From assembly GCA_964516055.1 (NCBI GenBank), contig CAZEYK010000003.1, positions 1-45,174 on the forward strand: DNA of 45,174 nucleotides, in the 5' to 3' direction. Origin of the DNA: an uncultured Gammaproteobacteria bacterium. Its GTDB lineage: Bacteria > Patescibacteriota > Patescibacteriia > Magasanikbacterales > UBA922. Every line of letters starts with the position of its first letter. Positions within the stretch are counted from its first letter, which is position 1. This document shows, in pieces, positions 5,174 to 38,106 of the stretch. The position numbers and the translations under genes are program-made. The notes below the pieces were generated by a model that was not told the origin of the DNA, ran no database searches, and saw nothing but the letters and a program-made list of their open reading frames with translations.

Positions 5174-5179
5174 GCGATG

Positions 5180-6137: not shown

Positions 6138-6473
6138 ATGGCGACCTACAACGTCAACGCCCGCATCGTCACCGTCAACGCCAACTCCGCCACCCTGCTG
6201 AAGATCGGTTTCGCCGACCCGGCCCAGAACGACCAGATCGTGCGTGACGCCGTCGCGGGCCTCGAGGCCTGCGGCGAGCTGAACGGCGAGCTGGTCCTGT
6301 TCAACGGCCCGGCCAGCCTCCCGGTCGCGTGCGCCCTCGCCCACGGCGTGGCGCACAAGTACGGCGCGGTGGCCTGCTTCGACCCGAAGCTCTCGGGGTA
6401 CGTGGTGTGCATCACCCACAACCCCAGCTTCCAGCTCGGGCAGGTCATCCCGGCCTCCGAGGTGACGGAGTAG
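6138..6473 (+). CDS. csx3: Csx3/Crn3-like cyclic oligoadenylate ring nuclease
   Basis: 111 aa with NGPASLPVACALAH and AVACFDPKLSGYVVCITH, matching the Csx3 pattern (G-x-x-P...H...DP[RK]L...V...H); GGAG upstream. Confidence 0.75.
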   Translation: MATYNVNARIVTVNANSATLLKIGFADPAQNDQIVRDAVAGLEACGELNGELVLFNGPASLPVACALAHGVAHKYGAVACFDPKLSGYVVCITHNPSFQLGQVIPASEVTE

Positions 6474-6590
6474 TCGCTCAAACGTGAGCAAACCTCCCCA
6501 GCGTCAAGGGGTACGCTAGATCGGAGGGAAATCAACCCCAACAACGCCCGAACACTCGGGCAACTCGGTAGCAACTGCTGCCAACTGCAT

Positions 6591-6673
6591 CTCGGGTTCG
6601 ATGATGAGACTAGCACTCAACTCATCGTTCCCCTTTAGTTCTTAATCTTTCTTGATTGAGGAGTGAAGGGGAA
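6591..6673 (+). repeat. Two-hairpin TAGCACTC element, copy 1
   Basis: GATGAG-acTAGCACTCaa-CTCATC, then a 20-bp stem 6628-6673. Confidence 0.85.
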
Positions 6674-6702
6674 TTTCCTAAAACTACAAAAAAGGAGGAA
6701 CA

Positions 6703-7284
6703 ATGAAAGTTGTCCTCATGGGCCCACCGCGCAGTGGAAAAAGCTGCTTGCGGCAGGGTCTGAAAGATGCGGTGCGGCGCGTTCCTGGAGCGCCGTATCC
6801 GTTCGTTATCACTGCGTGCCCTGACGGGGAGGGCGCGTGGTTCCAGGAGACGGTGAACGTGGATCCCGAAAAGGCAGCTGAACTGAAGGCTGCTTACAAA
6901 TCCACGTTCACCACTGAATTCGTCCAGCGGGTGGCGGATTCGGTGAAAAATTGTACCCTCCCGCTCACGCTCGTGGATATTGGCGGTATCCCGAGCGAAG
7001 AAAATCGGCGCATTTGCGCCACCGCCACCCATGCCGTCCTCCTCGCGGGCGACATGGGACGTCTGCCCGAGTGGCGTGCATTTTGCGAGGAACTGAACAT
7101 CACTATCCTGGCGGAGGTGTTCAGTGATTATCACGGTCAGGAAGATATTGTCCTCGTTCTCGGCGAGGACAATATCTATCGCGGATCTGTGCACCATCTG
7201 GAGCGCGGTGAAGCGGTGGGAGAGCGCCCCACGATCAAAGCGCTCGCCGAGATCCTCGCGGACATGGCCAACCGCGGGGAGTGA
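6703..7284 (+). CDS. P-loop NTPase of the type found fused to or beside Csx3
   Basis: Walker A GPPRSGKS, ACPDGEGAW, LVDIGG and THAVLL motifs; AAGGAGG RBS. Confidence 0.7.
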   Translation: MKVVLMGPPRSGKSCLRQGLKDAVRRVPGAPYPFVITACPDGEGAWFQETVNVDPEKAAELKAAYKSTFTTEFVQRVADSVKNCTLPLTLVDIGGIPSEENRRICATATHAVLLAGDMGRLPEWRAFCEELNITILAEVFSDYHGQEDIVLVLGEDNIYRGSVHHLERGEAVGERPTIKALAEILADMANRGE

Positions 7285-7790
7285 AACTGGCCAGCATGGA
7301 GGAAACATGCGACTTGTTCTTGAGCGCCACCGGCATAAGGCGTGATGACAAAATACCGGCATATGGCTCCCGTATGAGCTTATCATCGACTCCGACTTGG
7401 ATAATACGGTATCTAAGCGGACGGTTGATCCACGCACGGATTGAGCGCATGACTGATTTCATGCAACACCCTTTGGAGGTACCCAGCCAATGGGCACTCC
7501 GAGCGCCACTCTATAAGGCGCAGACAGCTCTGTATGAGCTCAAATATTATAGAGCGTCGCCGTTACGACGTATCTTGCACCCACTGATTGTTTCGGCAAA
7601 ATGTGGGCAGCTGGTCCCTGGCAGGACTGAGCGGATGACTGAAATCATCCATTGCAGAATAGGAGCAAAGACTTGCTCATTGCAATTGTCAGGCGGGGTT
7701 AATCTTCCTCCCGCCGAAGAAGCTGCAAAATCCTTTTGTGCAGGTAAGAGCAAGAGGTGCGGTTGTCTTGGCCCGCAGAAGCCAGACACA
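7285..7790 (+). ncRNA. ~500-nt densely structured RNA region (3' UTR or ncRNA)
   Basis: More than 12 consecutive hairpins, complementary loops 7370-7375/7404-7409, pseudoknot 7758-7788. Confidence 0.55.
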
Positions 7791-7873
7791 CTCGGGATTC
7801 ATCATCGACATAGCACTCGATCGATGATTCCCCTTGAGTCCTTAATCTGTATTGATTGAGATCTGAAGGGGAA
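7791..7873 (+). repeat. Two-hairpin TAGCACTC element, copy 2
   Basis: ATCATCGA-caTAGCACTCga-TCGATGAT, then stem 7828-7873; 61/83 identical to copy 1 without gaps. Confidence 0.85.
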
Positions 7874-8014
7874 TAACATCCTTTATCTCGTTTGTCTGCA
7901 TTGTTGCAGATAAGGTAACTCATGGTGAGCGAGATAATCTTTTACCATAAGAAAAGAGATAATGGGGAATACCAAGGTAGCTTGGAAATAACCTGTTGTC
8001 TCAAGGAGAAGCAC

Positions 8015-8458
8015 TTGAGTAAAATCAAGGTGCTTCGCGGCCTCCCCGGTGCGGGGAAGAGTACGTTTGTCAAGGGGAATTTCCCCGAGGCAACCGTGCT
8101 CTCCGCCGACGATTATTTCGTCGGTGAGGACGATGTCTACCGGTTCAATCCGGCCGACATCGGACTCGCGCACGGCCGCTGTTTTCGTCTCGTCATCGAG
8201 GCGTTGCAGCGGGGGGATGAGCTGGTAGTGGTGGACAACACCGCTACCACAATTGCCGAGGTTGCTCCGTACATGCTTGCAGCGCAAGCGTACGGATATG
8301 ACGCAGAGATCATTACTTTGCGTTGCGACCCGGCGATTGCCGCCTCCAGGAACATTCATGGTGTTCCGGAGCCTCTGGTCATGAAAATGGCCGAGGCTCT
8401 TGAGGCGGGCTCTCAGGCTTTGATGCCGTGGTGGCAACACTGCGTCGTCGAGGTCTGA
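8015..8458 (+). CDS. AAA_33 / N4BP2-like P-loop kinase (polynucleotide-kinase-like)
   Basis: RGLPGAGKST, SADDYF, VVVDNT, RNIHGVP motifs; TTG start after AAGGAG. Confidence 0.8.
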   Translation: MSKIKVLRGLPGAGKSTFVKGNFPEATVLSADDYFVGEDDVYRFNPADIGLAHGRCFRLVIEALQRGDELVVVDNTATTIAEVAPYMLAAQAYGYDAEIITLRCDPAIAASRNIHGVPEPLVMKMAEALEAGSQALMPWWQHCVVEV

Positions 8459-8580
8459 GATACCCAGGCCGCGATTAACCGTACCGGCGGTAAACCGGGA
8501 CAGACACTTAGGTGTTTGCGTGTTACACGCTAGAGTAGGAAATTCCAAGCGACCTTGGGATGAGACTACAGTAACAACCA

Positions 8581-8662
8581 CTCGGATCGATGACGAGACT
8601 AGCACTCAACTCGTCGATCCACTTGGATTCATAATTTAGAAAAATTGTGGATTGAAGTGGAT
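8581..8662 (+). repeat. Two-hairpin TAGCACTC element, copy 3
   Basis: GACGAG-acTAGCACTCaa-CTCGTC, then a 21-bp stem 8617-8662. Confidence 0.85.
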
Positions 8663-8681
8663 AGTAGTTTTCTTTACAAAT

Positions 8682-8710
8682 AAAAAACAACCCTCTACAG
8701 AGAGTTGTTT
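8682..8710 (-). terminator. Terminator of the 8724-9044 gene
   Basis: Hairpin followed by a T tract on the minus strand. Confidence 0.55.
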
Positions 8711-8723
8711 ACAAGGCGACAGG

Positions 8724-9044
8724 TTAGACCAGATCAAGGTTGAGATGTTTGATGATTTTTTCTACTTTCTTGTCGGTACGTTTTTGGTGCATTGCCATAG
8801 CGGCTATTTCTACTTCTTGCTTGCGATGGAGTCCGATGAAGCCATCAACGTGATCGATCATTTCGTTTCTGGTTTGTTGGATACTTTGTTCCAAATCGGT
8901 TTGGGTTTGTTGCAGTTCATCACGGACCTCTTTGATTTCTTGCTTGAATTCTGTACGAACGTCTTGCAGGTCTTGCTTGGTTGCACCGTTATCCTTAATA
9001 AAGGTGACGATCTCTAGGATGTCTTGTAGTTTTTGTTCCTCCAT
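8724..9044 (-). CDS. Small coiled-coil hypothetical protein (AT-rich, CPR-type)
   Basis: ATKQDL motif and heptad pattern; host-like codon usage. Confidence 0.75.
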   Translation of the reverse strand: MEEQKLQDILEIVTFIKDNGATKQDLQDVRTEFKQEIKEVRDELQQTQTDLEQSIQQTRNEMIDHVDGFIGLHRKQEVEIAAMAMHQKRTDKKVEKIIKHLNLDLV

Positions 9045-9411
9045 ACAAAAATAGATAAAAAGTAAGTATAGGAAGTATAAAGGGGTGTGACGCTTGTGTC
9101 AATGTGTGAAAATATAAAACAATTTAGCATAATGTGTTATCACTAATCGTTTAGAGAGAGGCGATAAGGTGGTAGCCAGATAGGTGTATTTCTCTCTCGG
9201 GAGAAATTTTTTGTTTGAGCAGGTAACGCGAGTTGTATGTTTAGACAAGAAATTGATGTAGATCTTTTTCTTGATCTCTCTAGTGTATTTTGATCATTAC
9301 AAATGAAAACATGAACTGGCTGCAATACAAGGAATATGCTTGTTTTTTGTATTGTGGTCAGTTCGAAAAAACAACGATCTAAAAAATGGATCAAAAAAAG
9401 GGAGTCTACCC

Positions 9412-12400
9412 ATGGCTAACAAGATGCTTGGTTTCTGGAAAATGGCCCTCGAGATCACTGCCGCGATCCTGTTTGGGAAGGGCATTCTGTCGTTCCCGAC
9501 GGGGACCGGCAAGACCACGCAGTGCCCGCAGCTGGTCTATGACTGGTTGCGAAAAAAAAATGATAATGGTTTGATTCTTGTCTCTGTCCCGCGTCGCGTG
9601 CTGGCTATCGAGCTGGCGCGACGTGTGGCGGAGGAGATGGGCTCCACCCTCGGGGAGCTCGTCGGTTACAAGATCCGAGGGGAAGAGGAGAAGTCGGAAA
9701 AAACTCGAATCCTTTTCGTGACCGAGGGCATGCTTCGTGCGTTGATCCAGAGCAACCCGTCCCTCGACGGGGTGAGCATGATCCTGTTCGACGAGTTTCA
9801 CCAGCGTTCGCTCATGAACGACTTCAATGTCGCTCTTGTCGAGCGGGCGCAACAGGAAGGCTCAAAGGTCAAGTTCCTCCTGATGTCTGCGACGATCGAT
9901 GCTTCGTCTTTGGCGGAGCACTTCGGTTGTTCTGTCGTTGATGGAACCGTTTTCGGGACGCAATTCGCGATCGAGGAGCGCTATCTCGATCGCGATCCGT
10001 CGGACCTCGTAGAGGCGGCGGTGGAGCATGTGCAGCAGCTCGTCAGCGAGCAGCGTGGAAACGGCCTCGTGTTCATGCCCGGCAAGGGCGAGATCATGCA
10101 GGTCGTGAACGAGCTCAAGCTGGTGGGCTTGCCGAGCGACGTCACGGTCTTGCCGCTTCACGGTGGCTTGATCGGTGATGATCGCTCGGCACCGTTTCGT
10201 TCTCGTAAGGGACGGACGGTGATCATCGCGACCGACATCGTCGAAACCGGTGCCACGTTGCCGGACATCACGTGGGTCGTAGACTCCGGGCTTGCTCGGG
10301 AGGTTCGCTACGATGTAATCTCGGATATCGGTGGGCTTCGGCTCGCCGAGGTGGCGAAGGATCGGTTGAAGCAGCGACGGGGACGGTGTGGTCGTGTGCA
10401 GGCTGGCGTGTATGTTGGACTTTTCACCGAGTTCAACAAAAACGCTCGGCAGGCGCAGACCACTCCGGAGATTTTCCGGAAACCGCTTCGCGAGGTCATT
10501 TTGACCATCAAGTCCATCGGGCTCTCCAGGGAAGGAGAGCCCATTCGGCTGCTCGACAGTCCGCCCAAGGCCAACTGGAAGCATGCGAAAGCCCAGCTTC
10601 AGGCCTTGGGGTTCGTGGCGACCGACAAGGACGCCAACATCACGCCGCTCGGCCGCAAGGCTGCGCGGATGGGGTGCGACCCCCGTGAGGCGGCGATGCT
10701 CCTCAAGGCTGAGGAGCTCGGCTGTCTTCAGGAAATGGCGTGGGCGGTTGCCGAGATGCAAACCTCCAAGAACCTCCTCGACACGTCCAAGGGGCAGTCG
10801 TGGGAGGCGGAGGCTGCTCACGCGCAGTTTCGCAGTGTCAAAACCTGCGATGCGTGGGCGGTCGTGGAGGTTTGTCGGCAGGTTGCTAGCCCGCCGAAGG
10901 GTCTGTCGCTTGGCAATTGGTGCCGTCAGAACTTTGTGAGCCATGAGGCTCTGAAGGAAGTGAAATCTGGTGCCGAGCAGCTGCTCAAGCGGTTCAAGGG
11001 CGACGCCAAGAAGGCGCGCCCGGTGACCGAGAGCACGCTGCGCCAGGCGATTCTGGCAGGTTTGCCTGATCGGATCTTCCAACACGACCACCGGGATCGA
11101 TACACCAATGTCGATTCCGGCGACTCCCTGATCCTTGGGAGGGAGTCGGTCGTTCGTAGCACCACTACGAACATGATCGTTGCGTCGTGGGAAGCTCGGG
11201 AAATCCAAACTCGCGCTGGTGGGACGCTTCGGCTGATCACCAGCGCTATCACTATCGAGCAGGATGCTCAGTGGCTGCGAGCGGCTCTCCCTCATCTCGT
11301 TGAGGTCGAGGAAGGTATCGACCCTCGTTACGAGATGGAACTGGATTTGGTCACTTCGGTGACGCGGGTTCGGTTCAAGGGTGAGTTGGTCTCGGCGGAA
11401 GAGCGGGTGAAGAACCCGCATCACCCCAAGGCGGCGCAGGTTTTTGCGCAGTACCTTGCCGAAGCCAGGGATGGCTCGGTGTCGGTGCTGTTCGAGAATC
11501 AGGCGCAGGTCGCGCGAGCCAAAGCGTTCAATCTTCGCGCCGGGGAAGAGGTCTTCGAGGTCACCAACCTCGTTGATTTTTACATCGGTGTTTGTGCTGG
11601 AGCGAGGAACGTCGGTGAGCTGAGTAAGCATATCTGCTCGCTCGATGACTTGCGTCTGCCTGTGCTCGATAGAGAACTCATCGAGCTCGTGGAGCAGGAG
11701 GCTCCCGAGTCCCTCGAGATCCTCGGCAGTTTGCTGCCGGTTGAGTACAGTGACGGCAAGGCTGACCCTCGGGTGAAGCTCTCCAAGGAGATGGTGACGG
11801 CGAATAGCTGGATCCAGCTCCCGGACGACGGAGTGCGTCTCCCAGGCGGTCGCTCGGTGGAGGTGGTGGTGAGCTTCGGCTACTACACCACCCTCGCTGA
11901 CACCAACATCTCGCAGCTCAAGGCGAAGGTGCGCGAGCACCTGAACTGCGAGCAGTGGGATGCGTGGTGTGATGATCGTCCCGAAATTGCTTTGCCCAAC
12001 GTGTCCGACGATGAGTCGGTGATCCCGTTTGTCACGGCTTCCTACGGGAAGTGCGTGGTGACGGGGGAGCCTCTCATGGCGTATGGAACCGTTGTTTGGG
12101 ATTCTTGGTACGCCAAGTTTTCCGTGAAATGGTTGTTCCGCAACGTCGACGACGGTCAACGCGCTGCCAACGAGGCGGCCGTGAAGCTCGAGTCACTCCG
12201 TGAGGAGGCTCGGATGAAACGGCTCGCCGAGAAGGCGCGTGAAGAGGCTGAGGCCGTCAAAGCCGTGCTCTACGCCCTCCAGTCCCACAAGGATTGGTAT
12301 GGCTTGGAGTACGAGTTTCGTCGGGCCGCCGAGTTCCGTGGCGGTTACGGTTGCTCCATTCCTTCCGACGACGTCGACGAAGCCCGCGCTTGGACCGTCG

Positions 12401-12978
12401 AGACCAAGGCCATGACGGCCGAGGTTAAGACGGCTTTGTCCAATCTCGCGTGTAAACGCGAGGAGGAAGAGCAGCGGAAGGTCGAGGAGAAGGCTGTTGC
12501 CGAGCAGCGGCGGAAGGACGAGAATGAAGCATATTCTCGGCTCGAGCTGGGGCTTAGCTCTGCGGTGAAGCGCTTGCGCTTTTTCCGTGGACAGCCGCAG
12601 TTCACGGTTTCTTTCGTGGCTGGGTCCGATGGCCAGTGGATCAACGAGCAGGACATCAACGGTTCTATCTGGGACTGGGCCCGCTCCGGCGGTGCTTGGG
12701 ACCAGAAGGTCCGCCGCAATGATGCGGCTGTTGTTGATTTCGCGTTCGTGGCTAATGGTCGTCTCGAGGTGCTCGCGTACTACGAGCATCGCAATGACCG
12801 TCCGTCCTTTGTCCTTCGGTGGACGTGGACGGGTGATTCTGAGCAGCCCACTGCCCCCAAGAAAACGGCTAAGCCAAAGAAGGTGGTCAAAGTCGTTGCT
12901 TCGCAGCAGTCTTCATCAACTCCTCCTTCGGAGGATGCAATGGCCGTGCTGCTCGGCAAATGGGGCAAAAAGCGCTGA
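9412..12978 (+). CDS. HrpA/HrpB-like DEAH-box RNA helicase with long C-terminal extension
   Basis: PTGTGKTTQ, PRRVLA, TEGML, DEFH, MSAT, FMPG, LHG, ATDIVETGAT, QRRGRCGR; GGGAG RBS before ATG 9412. Confidence 0.9.
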   Translation: MANKMLGFWKMALEITAAILFGKGILSFPTGTGKTTQCPQLVYDWLRKKNDNGLILVSVPRRVLAIELARRVAEEMGSTLGELVGYKIRGEEEKSEKTRILFVTEGMLRALIQSNPSLDGVSMILFDEFHQRSLMNDFNVALVERAQQEGSKVKFLLMSATIDASSLAEHFGCSVVDGTVFGTQFAIEERYLDRDPSDLVEAAVEHVQQLVSEQRGNGLVFMPGKGEIMQVVNELKLVGLPSDVTVLPLHGGLIGDDRSAPFRSRKGRTVIIATDIVETGATLPDITWVVDSGLAREVRYDVISDIGGLRLAEVAKDRLKQRRGRCGRVQAGVYVGLFTEFNKNARQAQTTPEIFRKPLREVILTIKSIGLSREGEPIRLLDSPPKANWKHAKAQLQALGFVATDKDANITPLGRKAARMGCDPREAAMLLKAEELGCLQEMAWAVAEMQTSKNLLDTSKGQSWEAEAAHAQFRSVKTCDAWAVVEVCRQVASPPKGLSLGNWCRQNFVSHEALKEVKSGAEQLLKRFKGDAKKARPVTESTLRQAILAGLPDRIFQHDHRDRYTNVDSGDSLILGRESVVRSTTTNMIVASWEAREIQTRAGGTLRLITSAITIEQDAQWLRAALPHLVEVEEGIDPRYEMELDLVTSVTRVRFKGELVSAEERVKNPHHPKAAQVFAQYLAEARDGSVSVLFENQAQVARAKAFNLRAGEEVFEVTNLVDFYIGVCAGARNVGELSKHICSLDDLRLPVLDRELIELVEQEAPESLEILGSLLPVEYSDGKADPRVKLSKEMVTANSWIQLPDDGVRLPGGRSVEVVVSFGYYTTLADTNISQLKAKVREHLNCEQWDAWCDDRPEIALPNVSDDESVIPFVTASYGKCVVTGEPLMAYGTVVWDSWYAKFSVKWLFRNVDDGQRAANEAAVKLESLREEARMKRLAEKAREEAEAVKAVLYALQSHKDWYGLEYEFRRAAEFRGGYGCSIPSDDVDEARAWTVETKAMTAEVKTALSNLACKREEEEQRKVEEKAVAEQRRKDENEAYSRLELGLSSAVKRLRFFRGQPQFTVSFVAGSDGQWINEQDINGSIWDWARSGGAWDQKVRRNDAAVVDFAFVANGRLEVLAYYEHRNDRPSFVLRWTWTGDSEQPTAPKKTAKPKKVVKVVASQQSSSTPPSEDAMAVLLGKWGKKR

Positions 12979-13140
12979 CACACCAACCGACCAAACATAA
13001 AGAAGTAATGTCGTTATAAACTCTGCTTCTTGCCTCTTCTCACAGAGGTTCGCATGGCGCGAAGTTAGTGAGATGGATACACACTCAGACATCCATTCCT
13101 GATTCCTACGGGATGATGGAGAACGTCTGTTTTTATATAG

Positions 13141-13219
13141 CACTTGGTTTGACGAGAAGATTAGCACTCATCTCGTCAGCCACCTTGAGTTTTTAATAAT
13201 AATTGAAGACTTAAGGTGG
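13141..13219 (+). repeat. Two-hairpin TAGCACTC element, copy 4
   Basis: TGACGAGA-agatTAGCACTCa-TCTCGTCA, then an 18-bp stem 13180-13219. Confidence 0.85.
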
Positions 13220-13498
13220 AAGGTGTTCTACCATCGTTTCTTTCCGCGATGTAAAAGAAGTGAATTTTGACAATATAAAAAGGAGTGTCTCCATGTGGAT
13301 TTCGGCACTCCAGTTCCTGGCACGTTCGCATAACCTCTTGCTTCGAGGTGAGCGTGCACTTCAGCCGTACGATGACGTGCGGCAAAAACTGTTTTTCTCG
13401 GCTGACTGTACATCATTTGCCATTCCGACTGTTCTATTAACCAATCGTGGTTGATGGAATTGAGGATTTACTCAAAACTTTTTCGGAGAAACAAAATC

Positions 13499-13921
13499 AT
13501 GAACGATAACACTACTCGGCTGTTTTTCGTGAACGAGGATCGTTGTGTTTTTTTGACGAACGCGGGTCGCAAGACTTGCGTTCGTGATATCATCGCGGCG
13601 CTGGCGGAGGAGGGGATCGAGATTTCTCGTTCTTCTATTTGGCGTTTGCAGACGGGGCGGGCGGAGTTTTTCCAGCCCGATTATCGTGAGTCGTTTCCTT
13701 CGTTGTCTCCGTATGCTATCGCTTTTGTCGAGCTCACGGAGGAGGACCGTGAGCTCTCTGAGCGTTTGAACCTCACCGAGTTCGCTCGGGGGTTTGGTAT
13801 CTCTCGGAAGACCGCCCGTAGTTTTCTCGAGCGCGGGTGGTTTGAAGTGAATCCGCGCAACGAAGTGAAGGTCCGGGTGGTTCTCGACCCTGGGCGGATT
13901 CGTCCGCCTGATGAGTTTTGA
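13499..13921 (+). CDS. GC-rich hypothetical protein with two HTH-like segments
   Basis: ISRSSIWRLQTG and NLTEFARGFGISRKTARSFLERG; GGAG upstream. Confidence 0.65.
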   Translation: MNDNTTRLFFVNEDRCVFLTNAGRKTCVRDIIAALAEEGIEISRSSIWRLQTGRAEFFQPDYRESFPSLSPYAIAFVELTEEDRELSERLNLTEFARGFGISRKTARSFLERGWFEVNPRNEVKVRVVLDPGRIRPPDEF

Positions 13922-14040
13922 TTTTTTTCGTTCTTTTTTGGGGAATCGTTTTTCCGCGATTCCCGTTCATCCAAAATGGTTTAGTCTTTAGACAGTTTTG
14001 TATGGGTATGATATAAATAATAACTTGTGATTGTTTGTAT

Positions 14041-14124
14041 ACAAAAATCCCTCGGTTTGTCCTTCCTATAAGCGTCTCTCTCCATTTGCTTGTAGGTTGG
14101 GTGTATAAACCGAGGGATTTTTGT
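14041..14124 (+). other. Long hairpin at the right edge of the island
   Basis: ACAAAAATCCCTCGGTTT / AAACCGAGGGATTTTTGT plus an inner stem with G-T pairs. Confidence 0.6.
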
Positions 14125-14250
14125 TTTTCACTCATGAGGACTATATCATGCTTTGTCTCGTTGATGTTGTAAATTTATTGCAACTGTATTATTATTATAC
14201 ATAATAATCTTTTTGCTCCTTGTTTATCTTTTTTATTATTGTATTTTTTT

Positions 14251-14970
14251 ATGACAAATCCACTAATTCATCTTGGGTTATCCAAAAAAGAGGTCACTAT
14301 TTATCAGGTGCTCATGGAGTTTGGACGGTTGTCTATTGCAGACATTGTGAAACACACCCATTTGCATCGGCATGATGTCTATGCCGTGTTACCAGACATG
14401 CTTGAAAAAGGATTACTCACGACTATTGATGAAGGAAAGCGAACGTTTTATCGTGCTGCGCCGCCATCTCAGTTGCAGCACTTATTTGCTGTTGTCCAAG
14501 AGCAAGTTGGTGATGAAATTCGACGTCTTACAGAGGCATTTTCTCCCGATGCTGTGCAGCCAGCGTTTCGTTTTTTGGAAGGGAAAAAGGGAATTCGTTT
14601 TGTGTTTCATGATTTAGTACACAGTCTTAATAAAGGAGAAATTTTTTATAAATATAGTTCAAGAAAATCAACAAAACTTCCTGATGATTGTTTGCCAAAA
14701 GGATATCGAGCACTTCGAGATAAAAAACAACTTGAACGTTTTGTAATCACCAGTGAACAATTAAAGAGTATAAAAAAGAAACGTCTTGAGCGTTCTATAA
14801 AAACGATTCCTACTGATTTTGATTTATTTGAATATGATATCACGCAACTTATTTATAAAAACAAGATTGCTTTTATTGATTATTCATCAATGACGGCCAT
14901 TTTAATTGAGAGCCCACTTTTGGCTTCGTTTCAAAAACGGTTATTTCAGTTGCTATATAAATTGTTGTAG
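14251..14970 (+). CDS. TrmB-family transcriptional regulator
   Basis: LGLSKKEVTIYQVL HTH, FLEGKKGI, IYKNKIAFI. Confidence 0.85.
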   Translation: MTNPLIHLGLSKKEVTIYQVLMEFGRLSIADIVKHTHLHRHDVYAVLPDMLEKGLLTTIDEGKRTFYRAAPPSQLQHLFAVVQEQVGDEIRRLTEAFSPDAVQPAFRFLEGKKGIRFVFHDLVHSLNKGEIFYKYSSRKSTKLPDDCLPKGYRALRDKKQLERFVITSEQLKSIKKKRLERSIKTIPTDFDLFEYDITQLIYKNKIAFIDYSSMTAILIESPLLASFQKRLFQLLYKLL

Positions 14971-15090
14971 CATAAGTTTGGTAATGTATTATTTTTAATC
15001 ATGTTCGTAGGAGGTGTTTTGATTTTTTTTGTTTCGCTAAAAAACATTTTGTATACTATACAACTATTACTCAATCTATCTAGTAGTCAT

Positions 15091-15930
15091 ATGACCACAT
15101 CTCGTTTACCAGAATTTCGTACCGCATCTTTTTTTGACTCATTTCATTCTCTTAATACACCTGATCATCCGGCTTCTTGGCAGGAGGAAGCATTTCAATC
15201 TGGTTGGAAAAATAAACCGGATTTTTTTGATACGCTCCATAGATTTTCTTTTGGCACGATGTCTATTGGGGATACTGTTGTGAATATGACCGTTCTTGGA
15301 ACAGAAGATCTTGCTCATCAGTCATGGAAACAGTGTGTTACTCAAGAGGTTATTCAGGATATTGATGGTACATTGCAGCATATTGCCAAGCAATGTGCCA
15401 GTATACATGCACTGCGGGAAATATCATTTTGTATGAGTCAACCAATTAATCCAGAGAATAAACAGCCTGCCAATGGGTACGCTCCAGTATCTATTTCACA
15501 AGATCACGAAACAGGACAGTCATTCGAGACTCCGTCAGGTGTTATTATTCTTTTTCCTCATGTTGTTGATGCAGTGCATGCGCATGAACCGTATCGGGGT
15601 GTTATTCCCGAATTGTCCCATATACAGGGGATTGTTACCCATGAGTGGGTACACCAATTTATGGCAGCGGAAGGCACCTCGTTTTGTGATGAATGGTTAT
15701 CTTTTGTTCCCGGATGGGAATATATACAAGGAAAATATGTTTACACAGCGGAAGAATCATTGCCAACTCCGTATTGTTCCCATAATCCGGTGGATGATTT
15801 TGTGGAGTGTATGACGATATATCTTTGGCAACCAGAACTTTTAGAGGTTAATCATCCTGAACGATTTTTTTTCTGTAAAGAATTTGTATCTTTTTTACAA
15901 GAATCGGCAGGTGTTGAAGAACATGCGTAA
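15091..15930 (+). CDS. Putative zincin metallopeptidase
   Basis: HEWVH plus downstream Y...NPVDDFVE. Confidence 0.6.
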   Translation: MTTSRLPEFRTASFFDSFHSLNTPDHPASWQEEAFQSGWKNKPDFFDTLHRFSFGTMSIGDTVVNMTVLGTEDLAHQSWKQCVTQEVIQDIDGTLQHIAKQCASIHALREISFCMSQPINPENKQPANGYAPVSISQDHETGQSFETPSGVIILFPHVVDAVHAHEPYRGVIPELSHIQGIVTHEWVHQFMAAEGTSFCDEWLSFVPGWEYIQGKYVYTAEESLPTPYCSHNPVDDFVECMTIYLWQPELLEVNHPERFFFCKEFVSFLQESAGVEEHA

Positions 15931-15965
15931 TGTGTGGTTTTTGCATCAGATTATTCTGTGAGTGG

Positions 15966-16121
15966 TTAATACATATCAATAATATTTCTCAATTTTTCTT
16001 GAGCAAAGTTGGTGGTATCTGTGGCTGTTTTTTTTATTTCTCCAAATCCGTTTGTTATTTTTCCTAGTATTCCTGTGGATTCAGTATCTTCATCTTTTTT
16101 TTGTCCTTGTGTGTGGGACAT
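15966..16121 (-). CDS. Small hypothetical protein
   Basis: 51-aa ORF from ATG 16121, just downstream of the DUF3179 gene. Confidence 0.4.
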   Translation of the reverse strand: MSHTQGQKKDEDTESTGILGKITNGFGEIKKTATDTTNFAQEKLRNIIDMY

Positions 16122-16132
16122 AATACATAGAG

Positions 16133-17269
16133 TTAGTTTGCGGTATATACCGCAATATCTGGATATACACTGACAAATGAAAACCAAAATCCGTAAATAG
16201 GAATAAGTTTTTCTTGCGTGTTATCTTGTATGAATAGTGGTATTTTGGTTTCTTTGTTATACGTGATTGATACCTTTTTTCCTGCAATGGTATCTGAAAA
16301 TTCTTCAGGACTTTGTTCGAGTTCTTCGAGTGGGTAGGCCTTCATTTCGTCATTGATAGTAACAACATAGGTTGGCATTTTGGGGTGGTAGCGGTTGTCT
16401 GTGTAATCTACTGGAAAAAAGAGAGACGTATCGTTTGCATAATTACCATATGGCGACGTTGTATAGTCCCGAGTAAATCCAGTATCTGTGCTAAGTACTT
16501 CTCCATTGGGATATGTCTGTTTCCAATCGTGGTAGCGCATGATTTGGTAGGGGAGTACGGTGAGTATTTTTCCTGTTTGTTTGCCGACTATTGCTTCTCC
16601 TAGTATTTGAGACCAATATGAATTTGTTTGTGTATCATACATAACAAGATTTGACTGATAGAGTTTTCCGCTGGTACCAAATGTTGTATATGTTCCATTT
16701 ACTTTGGGATCAAACACTATTCCGGTTCCGCCGAGTGGGCAGTAGGTAACAAGTATGTGCTGATCTTCAATAACATCATTTACTATTTCGTGCCATACCA
16801 GAATTTGAAATGGATAAAAACGGTATGTGTCTCCTACGGAAATGGCAATGCCCATACCATCGTCTTGTATGTCCGTTGCTTTTTTTATTGAGGTGAACGT
16901 TGGGTTATCGAGAGAAGGAATACCATCTTTTTCTGGACCTCCTGCAAGAATTTTTTCTAAAGGAACAGTATGTGTTATGCCATTTGTTATTTGATAGGAG
17001 GCATCTTCTTCTCCCGCGTTTGTTGTGCTTGCTGTATTGGTTGATGATATATCTCTTGCTATGCCCATGGCAAAAGAAATGTTTGTAGTATTTTTTTCTG
17101 AAGAGGTTGGAGTCACCGGTATTTCTTTTTCAATAATTTTTTCTACAATTTCTTTTTTTTCAATAATTATTGGTTTTGATGTTGTTAATACAAACAATAC
17201 TACTCCTGCAGCGCCAATACCGACGACCAAAATAAGAATTAAAAATGTCACGTGATTTCCTTGCCGCAT
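16133..17269 (-). CDS. DUF3179-family membrane-anchored protein
   Basis: GGPEKDGIPSLDNP, WHEIVND, VTYCPL, SGKLYQSNLVMYD, SYWSQ. Confidence 0.85.
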   Translation of the reverse strand: MRQGNHVTFLILILVVGIGAAGVVLFVLTTSKPIIIEKKEIVEKIIEKEIPVTPTSSEKNTTNISFAMGIARDISSTNTASTTNAGEEDASYQITNGITHTVPLEKILAGGPEKDGIPSLDNPTFTSIKKATDIQDDGMGIAISVGDTYRFYPFQILVWHEIVNDVIEDQHILVTYCPLGGTGIVFDPKVNGTYTTFGTSGKLYQSNLVMYDTQTNSYWSQILGEAIVGKQTGKILTVLPYQIMRYHDWKQTYPNGEVLSTDTGFTRDYTTSPYGNYANDTSLFFPVDYTDNRYHPKMPTYVVTINDEMKAYPLEELEQSPEEFSDTIAGKKVSITYNKETKIPLFIQDNTQEKLIPIYGFWFSFVSVYPDIAVYTAN

Positions 17270-17405
17270 ACGGTTGTAATTATATTTTTCAAAGTTCTTA
17301 GTTGGTGGTGATCTTCGTATTTTTTTCGGGGTGAATCAAATGTATTGTTGATATATAGTGTGAGGATGAATACTGTTGGTGTATTCATCCCGGCAGTAGA
17401 TATCA

Positions 17406-17822
17406 TTATGTGGTTTTTTTCTTTGGTGTTCGTGATTTTTTCTTTGGTGTTGGCATTGGTTGGGGTTGTATCATCATGTATAGGCGAAGGGGCATTAGCA
17501 AGAGGGCAAACAATATCCCAATAAGTACAATACATATTCCGGTAAGAATTTTTCCTACTCCAATAAGTTTCATGCTCATTAATGATGATGGATAATTTTG
17601 AATCATTGTAAGTTGTTTGGTAAGCATGGAGTTTGTTGGAGCTTCATCGCGTACCTGTTTTTCTATGGAGTAATATTGTGTTTGTAGCTCATGAAATTGC
17701 ATTTCTTCACGGACTACTTTTTTGTGTAAATCCATTCCTTGGAGGACAAAAATTCCTCCAAATATGATAACCACAACCATAATGGTTACCATGCCAACGT
17801 GCATTGTCTCGTTTTGTTGCAT
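17406..17822 (-). CDS. Two-TM hypothetical membrane protein
   Basis: Two hydrophobic segments; operon-like spacing after the ArsR gene. Confidence 0.7.
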   Translation of the reverse strand: MQQNETMHVGMVTIMVVVIIFGGIFVLQGMDLHKKVVREEMQFHELQTQYYSIEKQVRDEAPTNSMLTKQLTMIQNYPSSLMSMKLIGVGKILTGICIVLIGILFALLLMPLRLYMMIQPQPMPTPKKKSRTPKKKTT

Positions 17823-17864
17823 AGTGTTTGTTCTATTAAATAAATGACAGGCAATAATGCATAC

Positions 17865-18191
17865 CTATTTTTTTGAATGTTTTTTTATCAATTTTATGAT
17901 GGCATTTCCTACTGGATTTTTTTTGTTTATTCGATAACAAGTCATTTGTCCCATGCGTTGTTTGTGTACTAGTTCGTTTGTTTCCAAAATTTTTAATTGT
18001 TGTGATGCTGCGGGAACAGAAATGTCGAAAATGTGTGCAATGTCTGTGACGCAAAGGTCTTTGTATTTTTGTAATACACGAAATATTTGGTAGCGTACGG
18101 TATCGCTTAGAGCATCAAAAATATCAGGGAGTACACCGTTATGTTTGAGGAATTCTTTTTGTATTTTTTGAAGATCTTTTTTATCAAGCAT
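17865..18191 (-). CDS. ArsR/SmtB-family regulator
   Basis: FDALSDTVRYQI, LCVTDIA, SVPAASQQLKIL. Confidence 0.9.
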   Translation of the reverse strand: MLDKKDLQKIQKEFLKHNGVLPDIFDALSDTVRYQIFRVLQKYKDLCVTDIAHIFDISVPAASQQLKILETNELVHKQRMGQMTCYRINKKNPVGNAIIKLIKKHSKK

Positions 18192-18339
18192 AACGGTATG
18201 TAGTATACAATATTTTTTTTGTTTGGAAAAATATTTTTAATTTTTTTCGTGAATAGTATGATACAAAAAAGCCGCAGTTGCTGCGGCGTATGAGTGTTTA
18301 TGTTTGTGTGATATTTTTTTGAAAATAAAAAACCCCCAC

Positions 18340-18414
18340 TGGGGTGACTAACGGGGATCGAACCCGTGATAAGGGCACCACAAGCCCCTGTGTTACCACT
18401 ACACCATAGTCACC
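18340..18414 (-). tRNA. tRNA-His (GTG)
   Basis: Cloverleaf GTGACTA/TAGTCAC, anticodon loop TTGTGGT, TTCGATC T-loop, G-1 and encoded CCA. Confidence 0.95.
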
Positions 18415-20525: not shown

Positions 20526-20663
20526 AAAGTAGTAGGTATGTTTTGATAATTCTATTGTACTTGAGGGTTGACAACTGGTCAATTTTTTGCTATACTAATA
20601 GTGTTGTTAGTACAAAAAATAAAAAAGCTAACAGCGGCAAAAACAAAAATAAATACAAAACGT

Positions 20664-30597: not shown

Positions 30598-30882
30598 ATG
30601 GAACCATGGAAAAAAATTTTGGAGTCCATGCTTTCGGGGACGTTTTGGACATTTGAACGTGACGGGGACTCCGTCATGTTCTCCCACCCTTCTTGCAAGA
30701 AGGGTGTGGAGGCCAAGTTCTCGGAGAAAAACCCTCTCTCGGAAAGGCGGTTTGGGGGGGTCATTTTCCGCCCGACTCACGGTGGTGAGTTGGGCTGGCT
30801 CGTTTTTGAAGGCCAAAAGTTTTCGGTCGCCCTGGCCAGTCGGCCGGGTCTCCTCCTGTATTTGGAGGATTTCAAAACGTAG
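30598..30882 (+). CDS. GC-rich small hypothetical protein
   Basis: GAGG RBS, GC-rich codons, followed by two strong hairpins (30887-30922, 30928-30959). Confidence 0.55.
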   Translation: MEPWKKILESMLSGTFWTFERDGDSVMFSHPSCKKGVEAKFSEKNPLSERRFGGVIFRPTHGGELGWLVFEGQKFSVALASRPGLLLYLEDFKT

Positions 30883-31277: not shown

Positions 31278-33569
31278 TCAGTCTTTTTTGTAGGCTGATG
31301 GATCGACGACGATTTTGCTTTCGCCTTCGTCCTCGGGTTCGTTGCCTTTGTCCTCGCTGATCGGTTTGGGCGTGGGCTCGTTGCCTTCATCCTCGGCGAT
31401 CGGTTTGGGCGTGGGGTCGTTGTCTTTGTCTTCGAACCAGTCATCGTCGAGGTCGTCGGGGAGGGGGATCGGCGCTTTGGGCGGTTCCTCTGAGGAGCCG
31501 GCTGTCAGCGTTTTTTCGTTTCCTTTCTTCCATCCCAACGCGATGGCCTGCCGTTCGTCGATCTTCCAGATCGCCCCGGTGTCCGGGGCGAGCAGCTGAT
31601 TGACGTCTTGTGGCAAGTTGGGCTTGGGGAGCCCAGCGCGCTCGATGGCCTCGAGTCCCTCGTGGAACTTTTGGATGGGGTTCATGAGGCGTTTGACGTA
31701 GTTGTCGTACGCAAATGCCTCGAGTTCGGCTCGGTTGATGTTGGGATTTTTTCTCACGAGCTCGGCCACTCCTGCCCGCAAGCGGGCATGGAGACTCTGA
31801 ACCGTTCTCAATTGGCTTCCCAACTCTGACTCCGCCTTGAGCCCCTTGGCCACGATTTCAGCAGGGTCGACCCAGCCGTCCTGGCGGAGTCGGTCAATCG
31901 AGACGTTCCACGGCTCCCGCTGGTTGGCGGGGTCGGGGAATTGCTCGCCGACGAGATCTTTCCAGCTCGGTGCTGACGCGCCGGAGGCTGTGACCTCGCG
32001 GATGCATTTCAAGTAGGCTTCGAGGGCTTGCGCCGCCGAGGCCCTGCCGTCTCCGTTTTGACCATTGACCCACCAGCTGGCCATAGCCAACTGGATTTCG
32101 GGGAGGGGCATGTACCTTGGGTGGGTGTCGCGGATTTGAGCGAGAGACGTGATGAACGCCTCCCGCCGCTGGAGCCACTCGCGGAGGTTGTGGATCGCGT
32201 GCCGCATGCGGTCTGCGATGCCACGGGACTCTCCGTCGCGGGCGTACTCTTTGGCATCCGAGTAGCCCATGCCCTTGACGAGGGCTTGGGCGTCGGCGTT
32301 GCCGCGGAGTGCGGTCTGCCCCAACGAGTAGTATGCCACGATTTCACGCTCCCGCCCTGCGGTGAATTTCCACAGGAACGGGAGCATTTCGAACGCGAAG
32401 AAGAACAGGTGCATGAGGATGACCAGGATCAAGGCGGGGGTCCCACCAGCCTGGACGATCTTCATGCTTTCCGCCAGGTAGCCGGGGAGGGACCGATCTT
32501 CCCTCCACAGCTTGTCGTGGACGCGCGCCAGCGCGTCGAGTTCCTCGGGATCTTTGGTCCTTCGGATCTCGTTGATCTTGCCCCTCTTCTCATCCTTGAG
32601 CTGCTGTACGCGGTTGCCCACCTGCGAGCGGGCCTCGGCGACGTCTTTGTCGCGTTTCTCTTCGAGTTTGACGATTTGACCTGTGGTCTCCTCATCAAAC
32701 TTTTTAAGTTCCGCGTCGCGGTTGGCCCGGGCTTTCTTGAGCTCGCTGGCAAGATCGTCACGAGCTGCCTTGAACTCCTCTTTCCCGTATGGTACGCGAA
32801 CGCGAACGCTCACGAACTTTCCGGGGTTTTTTGGGTCCTGCACCTTGCGGTAGCCGAAACGCTTTGAGGCGTCGAGGTACTCCTGCTGGGCGCGATCGTA
32901 ATCTGCCTGCAGGGGGGCGATGATGCCGTTGTGCCGGTCGACCAGCTCGGCGCGCTCGGTGGCGCGGCGAGCCGTGTAGTCGTCCAGCTTCTTTTTCTTT
33001 TCGTCCTTCACGACGGTGATGCCTGCTGCCTGTTTCTCGGCGCCTGCGATCAGGATGTCGTACTCACGGCTGGTGTCGCTGACCGCCAAGGAGATGAGCT
33101 CCTGAGCGGCAGCGGTTTCCCTCTGCCTGATGTTGTGTTCTGCCATGGTGTAGAACACCATGGTCTCAAGCATGAGCGCTGAGACTGCTGTGAACACGAT
33201 GGCGATCATGATGCGGCCGAGGAGCGGTGCAAAGCTCCTCTTCATTTGGGACGTGTCCATGGTCATGACGCTCCGGTCGAACCAGAGCACGGCCATGCTG
33301 ACGACGAACGAGAGGAACAGACCCGTGGCGACGCCCGGAAGCGTCGCCAACATCCAGTTCCCGAGCACGCTCAGAGCTGTGTAGTAGCTCATCACGTACC
33401 CGGTAAAGAATCAGATGCCGGCGTTCATGAGCAGCTGCAGAAGCAGCAGCCACGCGCCGGGGGCGATGCGGTTGCGGGTGAGGTCGTTCATGGGCCCGTT
33501 GGTATTCAGGCCCAATCTCTCCACGATCCCCGGCTTTCGCGCGGGGGGTGGGGTGATCGTTGTCGACAT
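31278..33569 (-). pseudogene. DUF4407-like membrane/coiled-coil protein interrupted by one in-frame TGA
   Basis: AAGGAG + ATG 33569; frame continues through TGA 33411-33413 into ORF 31278-33395; WFDRS, RIMIAIV, FEMLPFLWK motifs. Confidence 0.65.
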
Positions 33570-37049: not shown

Positions 37050-37111
37050 GAGGAAATGATTGTTACGAGTATTTTGCTCGTTGTCTCTATGTATAATAAA
37101 CAGCTACGGCA

Positions 37112-37651
37112 TTATGCCGTAGCTGTTATTTTTTGGTGGATGAAGGCGAGGTGTTCATTGATGTCTGTTGTGGCAGGGAGTATGTGGCAGGGGATGCTGT
37201 GTTTTTCAATGAGGTTATGTATGATGGTATCAATTTCTTCTCTGAATGTTCCATCTGTTGAACGAACTTTATCGTGAACGGGGTCGATATCAAGTCGGGT
37301 TGTTTTAAATATTGCATGGTATGTTTTCATATGCTGCGCAGCAAGGCGTTCATACATTTGTATTTCGTCTGCGTGAGCGGCTCGGTATAGATAGGCAAAA
37401 TTATCAATAGTGGATCTATCGCATAATAAAAACATACCTGGGCGGTATGTTTGTTTTTCGTTTGAAATTTGTTCATTGAGAATCCATGCTTGTGCGGCGA
37501 CGGTGGTTTGTTCATTGATAGGAAATGGACAGAGGCGGGCAAATTCTGGCAGGTGGGTGACGGTATGTCCTTGTTCTTGTAATTGTTTGGCAAGGGCATT
37601 TTTGAGTGTCGTTTTTCCTGTGGAGTGGGTTCCAATGATAGCTATTTTCAT
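37112..37651 (-). CDS. AAA_28 / NadR-like nucleotide kinase-fold ATPase
   Basis: GTHSTGKTT, LPEFAR, LCDRSTID. Confidence 0.8.
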   Translation of the reverse strand: MKIAIIGTHSTGKTTLKNALAKQLQEQGHTVTHLPEFARLCPFPINEQTTVAAQAWILNEQISNEKQTYRPGMFLLCDRSTIDNFAYLYRAAHADEIQMYERLAAQHMKTYHAIFKTTRLDIDPVHDKVRSTDGTFREEIDTIIHNLIEKHSIPCHILPATTDINEHLAFIHQKITATA

Positions 37652-37821
37652 AATTTTTCTTAGTATATCATGTTTTGTTTGAATGATTGTCCACAGGATA
37701 TTTGTTTGTTGAAAGGGGGTTTTGTTAAAGAGAGGTATAATTGACAACCACTGGGTTATTTGCTTAATATACTCTGTCCGTCTGTAATTTTGCAGGCAGA
37801 CAATAACTAAGGAGTATGACG

Positions 37822-38106
37822 ATGATCACGCACACTGTGTACGAAAAAGGTAAGGTGCAGAGTCTCGGGTTCACTATGCCAGACGGTCGTAAAGCGACGG
37901 TCGGTGTGCTCGAGGCGGGGAGCTATAACTTCGGTGTCGCCAAACGGCGCGAGGAAATCGAAGTTATTACCGGAGAGTTGTCCCTCCCCGGCAGCAATAA
38001 TATGAAATGGCATCCGATGACCAATGATGTTCTCGTGTTCGAGGAAGGTCAGACCATCGAGTTCCTTGCCATCGATGGCACGTCGTACCTCTGCATCTAC
38101 GGCTAG
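37822..38106 (+). CDS. ppnP: Pyrimidine/purine nucleoside phosphorylase (DUF1255)
   Basis: YEKGKVQSLGF, ATVGVLEAGSYNF, EEIEVITGEL, YLCIYG; AAGGAG RBS (alternative ATG 37816). Confidence 0.85.
   Translation: MITHTVYEKGKVQSLGFTMPDGRKATVGVLEAGSYNFGVAKRREEIEVITGELSLPGSNNMKWHPMTNDVLVFEEGQTIEFLAIDGTSYLCIYG

Follow-up and report, generated by a model that had tools for sequence, protein, structure and literature searches.

Two gene classes with separate start signals and a two-hairpin element following GC-rich genes in a Magasanikbacterales genome

Why do GC-rich genes led by Shine-Dalgarno (SD) motifs lie scattered among AT-rich genes without such motifs, and by which ribosomes are they translated? 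The question is raised by a 45,174-nt contig from the order Magasanikbacterales of the Patescibacteriota (CAZEYK010000003.1, assembly GCA_964516055.1), which was analyzed over its whole length and is called the window here. It is contig C3 of the small genome of a groundwater bacterium (G000), 1.17 Mb in 103 contigs with a GC content of 38.7%, rated as 95.6% complete and 0.73% contaminated. An earlier note on this contig had proposed that the GC-rich genes are adapted to translation with the ribosome and tRNAs of a high-GC partner, either by repeated gene-sized capture or by selection for expression in the host. Our analysis revealed two gene classes across the genome, each with its own start signal, and a conserved two-hairpin element behind some of the GC-rich genes. 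We favor, with a probability of roughly 0.55, the reading that two initiation routes serve one ribosome and that the GC-rich class is a variable accessory pool with its own signals, translated by the cell's own ribosomes.

Two gene classes and their start signals

Genes were called with a simple two-model codon caller of our own, which gave 888 genes over 75% of the bases, with uncertain starts. Thirty of them, with GC contents at third codon positions (GC3) of 0.5-0.98, form the GC-rich class, and the remaining 858 form the AT-rich or native class. SD motifs of at least 4 nt, 3-12 nt 5' of a start, precede the 5'-most start of 16/30 GC-rich and 44/858 AT-rich genes (P-value = 2e-12, Fisher test), and any candidate start of 26/30 and 161/858 genes, respectively (P-value = 7e-15, Fisher test), so the expected genome-wide split in GC3 and SD use is present. 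At internal in-frame start-like codons, which served as the control, the motif occurs in 12.7% of cases in GC-rich genes and 9.6% in AT-rich genes. Motifs 4-9 nt 5' of the start are thus above the internal background in the GC-rich class (26 of 30), as SD-dependent initiation demands, while by the same comparison the native genes are SD-poor and, if anything, depleted. The GC-rich genes lie, as had been suspected from the window, at several separate loci (about 18, on 17 contigs), and include defence-like, envelope and metabolic genes and one recombinase gene.

The native class has a second start signal, which goes beyond what had been claimed before. T occupies position -1 in 543 of the 642 native genes with ATG as 5'-most start (85%), compared with a background of 30% at internal ATG codons and with only 2 of 23 ATG starts in the GC-rich class. 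With this signal added, "two dialects" is a fair description, and a stronger one than the earlier note knew. The closed genome of a same-family relative (G021; 984,181 bp, GC content 32%) repeats the pattern, with T at -1 in 542 of 671 ATG starts and SD motifs before 4/4 GC-rich genes, a helicase island included. Start regions of 29 GC-rich genes have a mean fold energy of -12.2 kcal/mol, and those of 292 native genes one of -5.6 kcal/mol. This stronger folding would be a plain reason for the need of an SD motif where the normal route uses open, AU-rich leaders.

The GC-rich genes of the window, and one AT-rich gene with an SD motif, are the following.

6138-6473, + strand: csx3-family gene; GC3 0.98; SD GGAG 9 nt before ATG; Pfam Cas_csx3 (6e-9)
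6703-7284, + strand: P-loop NTPase gene, 193 aa; SD AAGGAGG 4 nt upstream
7922-8458, + strand: AAA_33 kinase-like P-loop gene; Pfam AAA_33 (2e-14)
9412-12978, + strand: DEAH helicase gene, HrpA/HrpB-like; GC3 0.72; Pfam DEAD and Helicase_C; longest open reading frame (ORF) from TTG 9340
13451-13921, + strand: orf13451, GC-rich, 156 aa; GC3 0.61; no family
22643-23335, + strand: PolB-exonuclease-like gene, AT-rich; GC3 0.33; strong SD; Pfam DNA_pol_B_exo2
30598-30882, + strand: orf30598, GC-rich, 94 aa; GC3 0.66; SD GAGG 5 nt upstream; no family
31278-33569, - strand: DUF4407-family gene; GC3 0.78-0.79; Pfam DUF4407 (7e-13); SD AAGGAG 7 nt before ATG 33569
37816-38106, + strand: ppnP-family gene; GC3 0.69; Pfam Ppnp (4e-14), NCBIfam below cut-off

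The window ORFs that had been named as GC-rich are so, with GC contents of 0.52-0.69 (csx3 0.69, P-loop gene 0.60, AAA_33 gene 0.55, helicase 0.60, orf13451 0.52, orf30598 0.53, DUF4407 gene 0.61, ppnP 0.53) against 0.36-0.42 in the native flanking genes. In csx3, 109 of 111 sense codons end in G or C (71 C, 38 G), the count given before. The GC shift, which had been described as following ORF boundaries, tracks them only roughly, because spacers within the islands have GC contents of 0.33-0.49. SD motifs had been ascribed to all GC-rich genes of the window; they are found before csx3, the P-loop gene, orf30598, the DUF4407 gene and ppnP, but the helicase has only AAGGA before a TTG, and the AAA_33 gene only AAGGAG 6 nt before the internal TTG 8015 (codon 32) and none at its other starts, so that an SD-led start may lie at TTG 8015. 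In ppnP the motif TAAGGAG stands 7 nt before ATG 37822, and the start assigned earlier, 37816, is only 1 nt past it. The AT-rich gene at 22643, singled out as an SD-led exception, does carry AAGGAGGGGG upstream.

The lineage's own ribosome can pair with these motifs, because the 16S rRNA 3' end is GGATCACCTCCTTT, with the canonical CCTCC, in all four relatives in which a 16S gene was found (same-genus G049 and same-family G021, G139 and G045). The anti-SD is less frequent in a Parcubacteria subgroup according to a published survey (PMC9297842, in the portion consulted), and the family of the window organism is not such a case. Among the 35 tRNAs found, C-ending codons are served by G34 species, and C34 species exist for Gln, Glu, Lys, Leu(UUG), Thr and Arg but not as Leu-CAG; the cell's own set reads all codon families found. 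With a canonical anti-SD in four relatives and adequate tRNAs of its own, the appeal to the ribosome and tRNAs of a high-GC partner was not borne out.

Codon usage agrees with neither a foreign nor a simple native optimum. The Leu codons of the GC-rich class favor CTC (0.49) over CTG (0.25), with C-ending over G-ending codons throughout, and the GC-richer members of the order show both preferences likewise; typical high-GC phyla are not known to share the preference for CTC over CTG. The native genes with the highest C-over-T usage at two-fold pyrimidine-ending codons are mostly ribosomal protein genes and a cold-shock protein gene (recognized by eye), and they avoid G-ending Lys, Glu and Gln codons (G/(G+A) 0.03-0.12, compared with a median of 0.60 in the GC-rich class). 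Because it uses these G-ending codons, the GC-rich class is not simply optimized for the native tRNA pool; it is broadly GC-shifted, with no demonstrable tuning to a foreign pool either.

The initiator tRNA has A37. In Escherichia coli, pairing between U(-1) and A37 is documented as an enhancer, of modest effect in reporter libraries (Hollerer and Jeschek, 2023, PMC10018350, in the portion consulted); U before AUG and A37 recur here, with U(-1) at 85% of native ATG starts. As an observation in its own right, the initiator tRNA gene (G000:C9:29837-29911) shows a C1-A72 mismatch, three G-C pairs next to the loop and, by the anticodon placement of ARAGORN, a loop CC-CAU-AA with C instead of the usual U at position 33 (positions read by hand). 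In Bacteroidota the anti-SD is kept, most genes are without SD motifs and a few exceptions such as rpsU are SD-led. The lineage studied here is alike in its canonical anti-SD, the AU-rich SD-less leaders of most genes and an SD-led minority, but this minority is a GC-rich accessory class and not a ribosomal protein gene, and the native U(-1) is near-fixed. When GC-richer CPR (Candidate Phyla Radiation) relatives of G000 were considered as SD users, 20-kb samples of 20 genomes, which are small samples, showed low or moderate SD use. A literature search found no paper on SD-less translation in CPR bacteria with a GC-rich SD-led class.

Distribution of the GC-rich genes and the two-hairpin element

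Homologs of the helicase, csx3 and ppnP products were searched among 5.8 billion clustered proteins, and those of the DUF4407 protein among 1.8 billion representatives; both collections include the very aquifer samples. The best identities were 54% and then 49% for the helicase, 73% for csx3, 71% for ppnP, and 63% and then 26% for the DUF4407 protein. A near-identical copy in a high-GC donor, which the earlier note had named as the mark of simple recent transfer, was therefore not found (best identities 54-73%), nor was any donor lineage with homologs closer than the host's own relatives. When 185,579 species genomes were scanned with a profile, only helicase-core matches were returned, none above 40% identity and mostly generic HrpA/HrpB cores; the full-length matches in that scan came from two Saccharibacteria metagenome-assembled genomes (MAGs) and one Gammaproteobacteria-labelled MAG. 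A single-protein scan of the species genomes for helicase relatives returned none, and a metagenome scan only one near-identical contig. Helicase homologs of 28-38% identity are present in 16 of 150 other genomes of the order, most of them exceeding host GC by 0.05-0.22 and three not, and ppnP in 1 of 150. Seven of 400 further genomes in the phylum have csx3, and the two closest relatives of the window gene (57-60% identity) show GC3 of 0.93 and 0.89, with SD motifs. Generally, the closest full-length relatives of the GC-rich genes belong to other CPR or unclassified MAGs and have GC contents 0.1-0.2 above those of their hosts.

Close relatives differ in these genes. Neither the helicase nor ppnP was found in the same-genus genome G049, in which a contig break falls at ppnP. 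The second island (30.5-33.6 kb), which includes the DUF4407 gene, is absent at the syntenic site (about 1.5 kb there, 5.3 kb in the window), and at the site of the first island (6.1-13.9 kb) the G049 contigs break, which leaves synteny not resolvable. The helicase islands of G000 and G021 stand in different contexts. Atypical composition and codon usage and a patchy distribution among close relatives, as known of genomic islands, were thus found, and an identifiable donor was not. The GC-rich genes look compositionally fresh, have no visible donor, turn over within the genus and have distant GC-rich relatives in other CPR bacteria, and no single standard model fits all four.

The first island contains four copies of an element of about 90 nt.

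6588-6678, + strand: e1, two hairpins with loop motif TAGCACTC; z -4.45 on the + strand and -1.9 on the - strand
7788-7878, + strand: e2, structured, z -4.73
8576-8667, + strand: e3, structured, z -4.72
13139-13225, + strand: e4, more diverged; E 6e-8 with model R1 (built from e1-e3), 78 bits with model R2

A repeat search of the window returned three 84-nt copies, after csx3, before the AAA_33 gene and after it. On the sense strand, these copies (e1-e3) form two hairpins (z -4.5 to -4.7, compared with -1.5 to -2.2 on the opposite strand). The model built from them found the fourth copy after the helicase and no further match in the genome, and a broader model added one weak copy on contig C21, which starts 2 nt past another GC-rich gene. 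RNAalifold gave the same two-hairpin fold for 15 copies, with 19 of 22 pairs changed on both sides; 90.8% of cells are paired, compared with 70.3% in shuffles (none of 500 as high as the observed value) and with 36-54% when partners are slid by 1-3 columns. With about thirty G-U cells, the sense strand appears to be the one that folds. With Rfam 15, no match at gathering score was obtained in the window, and only chance-level ones (E 0.14-8) in 6480-8720.

The element was detected in 10/149 other genomes of the order, 12/106 other genomes of the family and 2/150 other genomes of the class; it stands behind non-homologous GC-rich genes in about 20 related genomes and is, for the most part, restricted to the order. 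Among 35 copies, the upstream 450 nt have a GC content of at least 0.5 in 32/35 and the downstream sequence in 16/34, and the upstream coding phase is on the element's strand in 31/35 copies (18/18 of those with strong periodicity). Of the hits with E of at most 0.0011 outside the model-building set, 13/14 are found 2-285 nt downstream of an ORF whose GC3 is at least 0.64. In genus g64 the element is the best-conserved part of the locus (86% identical, compared with 64-72% for the gene). The notion of repeated gene-sized capture is supported in part only: the genes are patchy and absent from the same-genus genome, and the element follows unrelated GC-rich genes, but most of the class is without it. 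Separately from this, one relative (G129) has two identical inverted copies 45 kb apart on one contig, C4:59270-59352 (L266:7270-7352, + strand) and C4:104439-104521 (L267:7439-7521, - strand), each of which heads away from its own TrmBL2-like gene and array.

The first island is a co-oriented array between two TrmBL2-like genes.

4032-4835, - strand: TrmBL2-like winged-helix regulator gene, 267 aa, AT-rich, native in style, divergent from the array; Pfam TrmB (4e-13)
14239-14970, + strand: second TrmBL2-like gene, at the far end of the array; Pfam TrmB (8e-12); 27% identical to the first (BLASTP 2e-18)

A profile of nine homologs of the first protein matches PDB 5bpd, an archaeal TrmBL2, over 11-253 of 268 positions (E 1.2e-8), so that both the winged helix and the C-terminal domain of the TrmBL2 type are present. 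TrmBL2 is described as an abundant DNA-coating protein (PMC4877046, in the portion consulted). Arrays of 2-3 element copies are present in G079, G091, G129, G059, G073, G541 and G095, and those of G079, G129 (two arrays), G073, G091, G095 and G059 are headed, as in the window, by an opposite-strand gene of 259-274 aa; the head genes of these six genomes are homologs of the 4032-4835 gene (24-56% identity). The cargo differs: 40 GC-rich ORFs taken from 11 array loci yielded one weak pair of homologs. G000 has six TrmBL2-like paralogs, four of which abut GC-rich SD-led genes (two on C3, one each on C44 and C14); those at G000:C44:3285-4983 and G000:C14:4468-5561 are divergent from GC-richer SD-led genes. 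Two observations on the arrays are noted beside these. A conserved gene of 780-900 aa with a weak GNAT match adjoins the TrmBL2-like head gene in several relatives (L265:2441-5077, L266:1931-4600, L271:13338-15683, L264:4383-7043), not in the window. In addition, contigs of two other samples match the window up to 4652, 5382 and 5679 and then diverge (one contig each); these points lie between the TrmBL2-like gene and the first cassette and may mean co-occurring strains with other cargo.

The element probably acts at the RNA level, by termination, processing or stabilization. In addition to the G-U pairs and the position of e1 between csx3 and the P-loop gene, which is a lead, contigs from RNA libraries stop at 6592 and 8591 and start at 6691, 7880 and 7905, near element edges (a weak hint). 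Such contigs, from two runs, cover 6003-8591 and leave the helicase and most native flanks uncovered, which is no evidence of silence. A role as recombination site is less likely; the array layout, the unrelated cargo and the closer likeness of copies within than between genomes (by eye) point to it. Phage morons are self-contained gene units with their own signals, and repetitive extragenic palindromic (REP) and bacterial interspersed mosaic elements (BIME) 3' of genes can stabilize or end transcripts. Both likenesses hold here, for the self-contained units and for structured repeats just after genes, but no prophage context was seen, and with 4-5 copies per genome the repeat is found in GC-rich arrays only.

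Integron cassette arrays are the closest parallel in layout. In both, co-oriented, short, unrelated and mostly single-gene units with their own ribosome-binding sites are each followed by a conserved structured repeat, a conserved divergent gene stands at the head, and the same slot has differing cargo between genomes; the co-oriented ORFs with repeats occur here with four copies in the window. Furthermore, repeats of the window type look more alike within a genome (by eye), as in sedentary chromosomal integrons with species-specific attC sites. An attC site is one imperfect hairpin with R''/L'' and L'/R' boxes (RYYYAAC ... GTTRRRY), whereas the consensus here has two separate, adjacent hairpins, and inspection of its ends showed neither the R'' nor the R' core box. 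The head gene is TrmBL2-like, the G-U pairs point to folding of sense-strand RNA, and one copy lies between two genes that look functionally linked. No integron integrase (IntI-type tyrosine recombinase) was found beside the arrays from family matches of the neighbors, with no IntI-specific model run. The nearest tyrosine recombinase gene (19500-20582) is about 6 kb past the array, in a DNA region that matches G049, which is without the helicase. A literature search found no paper on integron-like arrays in CPR bacteria. An order-specific gene-cassette platform, an integron analogue without integron integrase, is only a tentative possibility; in it, a TrmBL2-like gene would head GC-rich SD-led cassettes, the element would serve capture or shuffling together with RNA punctuation, and the U(-1)/SD split would put the accessory set under separate translation control.

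Competing explanations

Under the favored reading, the native class (about 97% of called genes) would start translation from AT-rich, SD-less genes with AU-rich, weakly folded leaders and, before AUG, a U able to pair with A37 in the initiator tRNA. The accessory class (about 3%), GC-rich and with SD motifs 4-9 nt before ATG, would sit in variable slots, be laterally acquired and turn over fast by lateral exchange. The SD motif would compensate for GC-rich 5' ends that are too structured for the SD-independent native route, the genes of the first island would each be followed by a two-hairpin element working as RNA, and TrmBL2-like proteins may regulate the arrays. The two classes and their signals, the element with its covariation, the patchy distribution and the canonical anti-SD of the relatives are observed directly.

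Several points weigh against this reading. It leaves the force which keeps the class GC-rich without explanation, and a pool confined to hosts of 32-55% GC should drift to AT. The element is carried by only 5 of about 30 GC-rich genes in the genome, so the class is heterogeneous; no copy is present at the second island, ppnP, the C1 and C16 islands or the G021 helicase island, and no second repeat family was found after other GC-rich genes, the other islands ending in ordinary hairpins. Since e1 sits between csx3 and the P-loop gene, its apparent functional partner, the element does not have to delimit units that were captured one by one. The arrays have no adjacent recombinase gene, either in the window or among the neighbors in seven relatives, which are TrmB-like and GNAT-containing genes. 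The anti-SD was read in relatives only, the 16S gene being absent from the G000 assembly, and gene calls and start sites rest on our own crude caller. The RNA data are assembled contigs, without strand, transcript ends or expression level, and DNA carry-over is possible in them.

Ordinary recent transfers from high-GC, SD-using donors, not yet ameliorated and without any lineage-specific system, would account for the patchy distribution, the absence from the same-genus genome and the many GC-rich genes without the element. The helicase GC contents at the three codon positions (0.63/0.42/0.72) agree with one another, by published relations of genome GC to codon positions, on a donor of about 57-62% GC and give no sign of decayed GC3, and the GC-rich large serine recombinase gene on C6 and the second, bacterial-type prolyl-tRNA synthetase (ProRS) gene beside the native archaeal-type one agree with such an origin. 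However, the protein collections and species genomes yielded nothing close, the nearest full-length relatives sit in CPR or unclassified MAGs at GC contents above those of their hosts, and the 3' element is largely confined to the order; we therefore regard this explanation as unlikely. The amelioration model of Lawrence and Ochman is said to cover compositionally atypical transferred islands. With such islands the genes studied here share odd GC and codon usage, patchy distribution, accessory functions and one recombinase gene, but it is the host that is AT-rich and the inserted DNA that is GC-rich, a reversed polarity; a donor was not found, distant CPR relatives are GC-rich too, and own start signals and a lineage-specific 3' element are present. 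Another explanation is a long-resident native class, in which G/C-ending codons and SD motifs are kept by selection (for mRNA stability or a separate translation regime) or GC-biased gene conversion. Helicase homologs in other genera and families, though diverged to 28-38% identity, are still GC-rich relative to their hosts, csx3 relatives keep high GC3 and SD motifs, the cargo gene of genus g64 keeps GC3 of 0.76 and 0.87 at 44% protein identity beside its well-conserved element, and the GC3 of csx3 is above the value predicted from its first and second positions. Long residence is doubtful all the same, as the window genes are not shared with the same-genus genome, the two helicase islands differ in context, the G-ending Lys, Glu and Gln codons are not those of simple optimization for native tRNAs, and only 2/23 genes have acquired the native T(-1).

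Translation on the host side, by which the genes would be tuned to and expressed in a high-GC host cell, draws on the fact that CPR bacteria are thought to live attached to hosts and that SD sites and G/C-ending codons would suit many high-GC bacteria. It is very improbable in view of the canonical anti-SD and the tRNAs for all codon families found, the preference of CTC over CTG shared with GC-richer CPR relatives, and the contents of the class, in which the second ProRS, lipid and sugar enzymes and the Csx3 set act inside the encoding cell; no export signal or mechanism is visible. A chimeric assembly or a binning error with high-GC DNA could be thought of for a metagenome assembly in 103 contigs, and the contigs that bridge GC shifts cover the first island, not the second or ppnP, which is also a point against the favored reading. 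This explanation is extremely improbable: within their contigs the islands are flanked by native DNA on either side, and a closed relative of 984 kb carries a GC-rich SD-led helicase island. The assembly break that might have been suspected at the GC shifts was not seen at the borders of the first island, both of which are spanned by contigs of other samples. In two other samples, Logan contigs span 34-7117, 3072-8665 and 12220-18368 and differ little from the window; over 7704-12015, a stretch with two GC shifts, a separate 4.3-kb contig from a metagenome agrees at 99.9% identity; and at least half of the sampled words of 5001-15000 are present in twelve runs.

A large part of bacterial diversity belongs to the CPR, and next to nothing is known of gene expression or gene exchange in these bacteria. 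The genome offers three handles on both: a genome-wide initiation signal, U before AUG without SD, alongside a retained anti-SD; an accessory class that is compositionally and translationally distinct, beyond the standard logic of horizontal transfer; and a new structured element which, with a regulator family, marks slots of accessory genes. The two-hairpin element and the link to TrmBL2-like genes are new here. How reduced symbionts gain and control new genes becomes testable by sequence searches, metatranscriptomes and reporter assays. For annotation, start prediction based on SD motifs will misplace starts in these genomes.

Other genes of the window and genome

The csx3 product scores 36 bits with Cas_csx3 (PF09620; curated cut-off 21) and belongs there. 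It has 754 relatives in the database searched, many of them source-named Csx3. The adjacent P-loop gene has no Pfam or NCBIfam match; its look-alikes in the ESM Atlas include clusters named Csx3 or bearing Cas_csx3 (score 0.89-0.99), so it is a probable candidate for a Csx3 partner, as a lead only. Two further stretches lie at and within the array.

5734-6075, + strand: ORF of intermediate GC content (0.45), no Pfam match, codon-position GC flat (0.47/0.42/0.49), coding status uncertain
7285-7787, + strand: stretch of about 500 nt between the P-loop gene and e2, GC content 0.50, periodicity amplitude 0.01

In the latter, codon-position GC is flat along the ORF at 7281-7859, and RNA-library contigs of two runs cover 7289-7635 and 7328-7726; we read it as non-coding or as a decayed gene. 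The helicase has a long, lineage-restricted C-terminal part, and its NCBIfam HrpB/HrpA matches are below cut-off.

The ORF at 31278-33569 has an in-frame TGA at 33413-33411, 52 codons past the SD-led ATG, with a possible restart at GTG 33395. Relatives of the DUF4407 protein begin about 50-100 residues before the 705-aa form, which means that the TGA cuts into a gene that was ancestrally longer, provided that it is not an error of the assembly; apart from such an error, it could mark a decaying gene or a truncation with restart. An alternative genetic code (4 or 25), prompted by this TGA, was rejected. Code 11 fits, because ORFs of at least 150 aa total 372,565 residues under it in the 1.17-Mb genome and TGA is the stop of 22/300 native and 10/30 GC-rich genes.

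Elsewhere in the genome, the island on C1 is a kinase-TPR-FGE operon, and the large serine recombinase gene (G000:C6:63-1274, GC content 0.55) lies at a contig start and is the only mobility gene seen in the GC-rich class. On C16, a GC-rich SD-led proline-themed island (G000:C16:2658-9122) contains genes for the bacterial-type ProRS (TIGR00409) and a prolyl aminopeptidase (TIGR01249), both above cut-off, together with a DAO-family oxidase and an aldehyde dehydrogenase like pyrroline-5-carboxylate dehydrogenase. The native archaeal-type ProRS gene (TIGR00408, above cut-off; proS at C16:621-2117) directly adjoins it, so that two ProRS genes, each of another type, are present in the genome. Just upstream of the array region of the window, at 204-2703, 3/5 tandem small genes match the pilin family of type IV secretion systems at or near cut-off.

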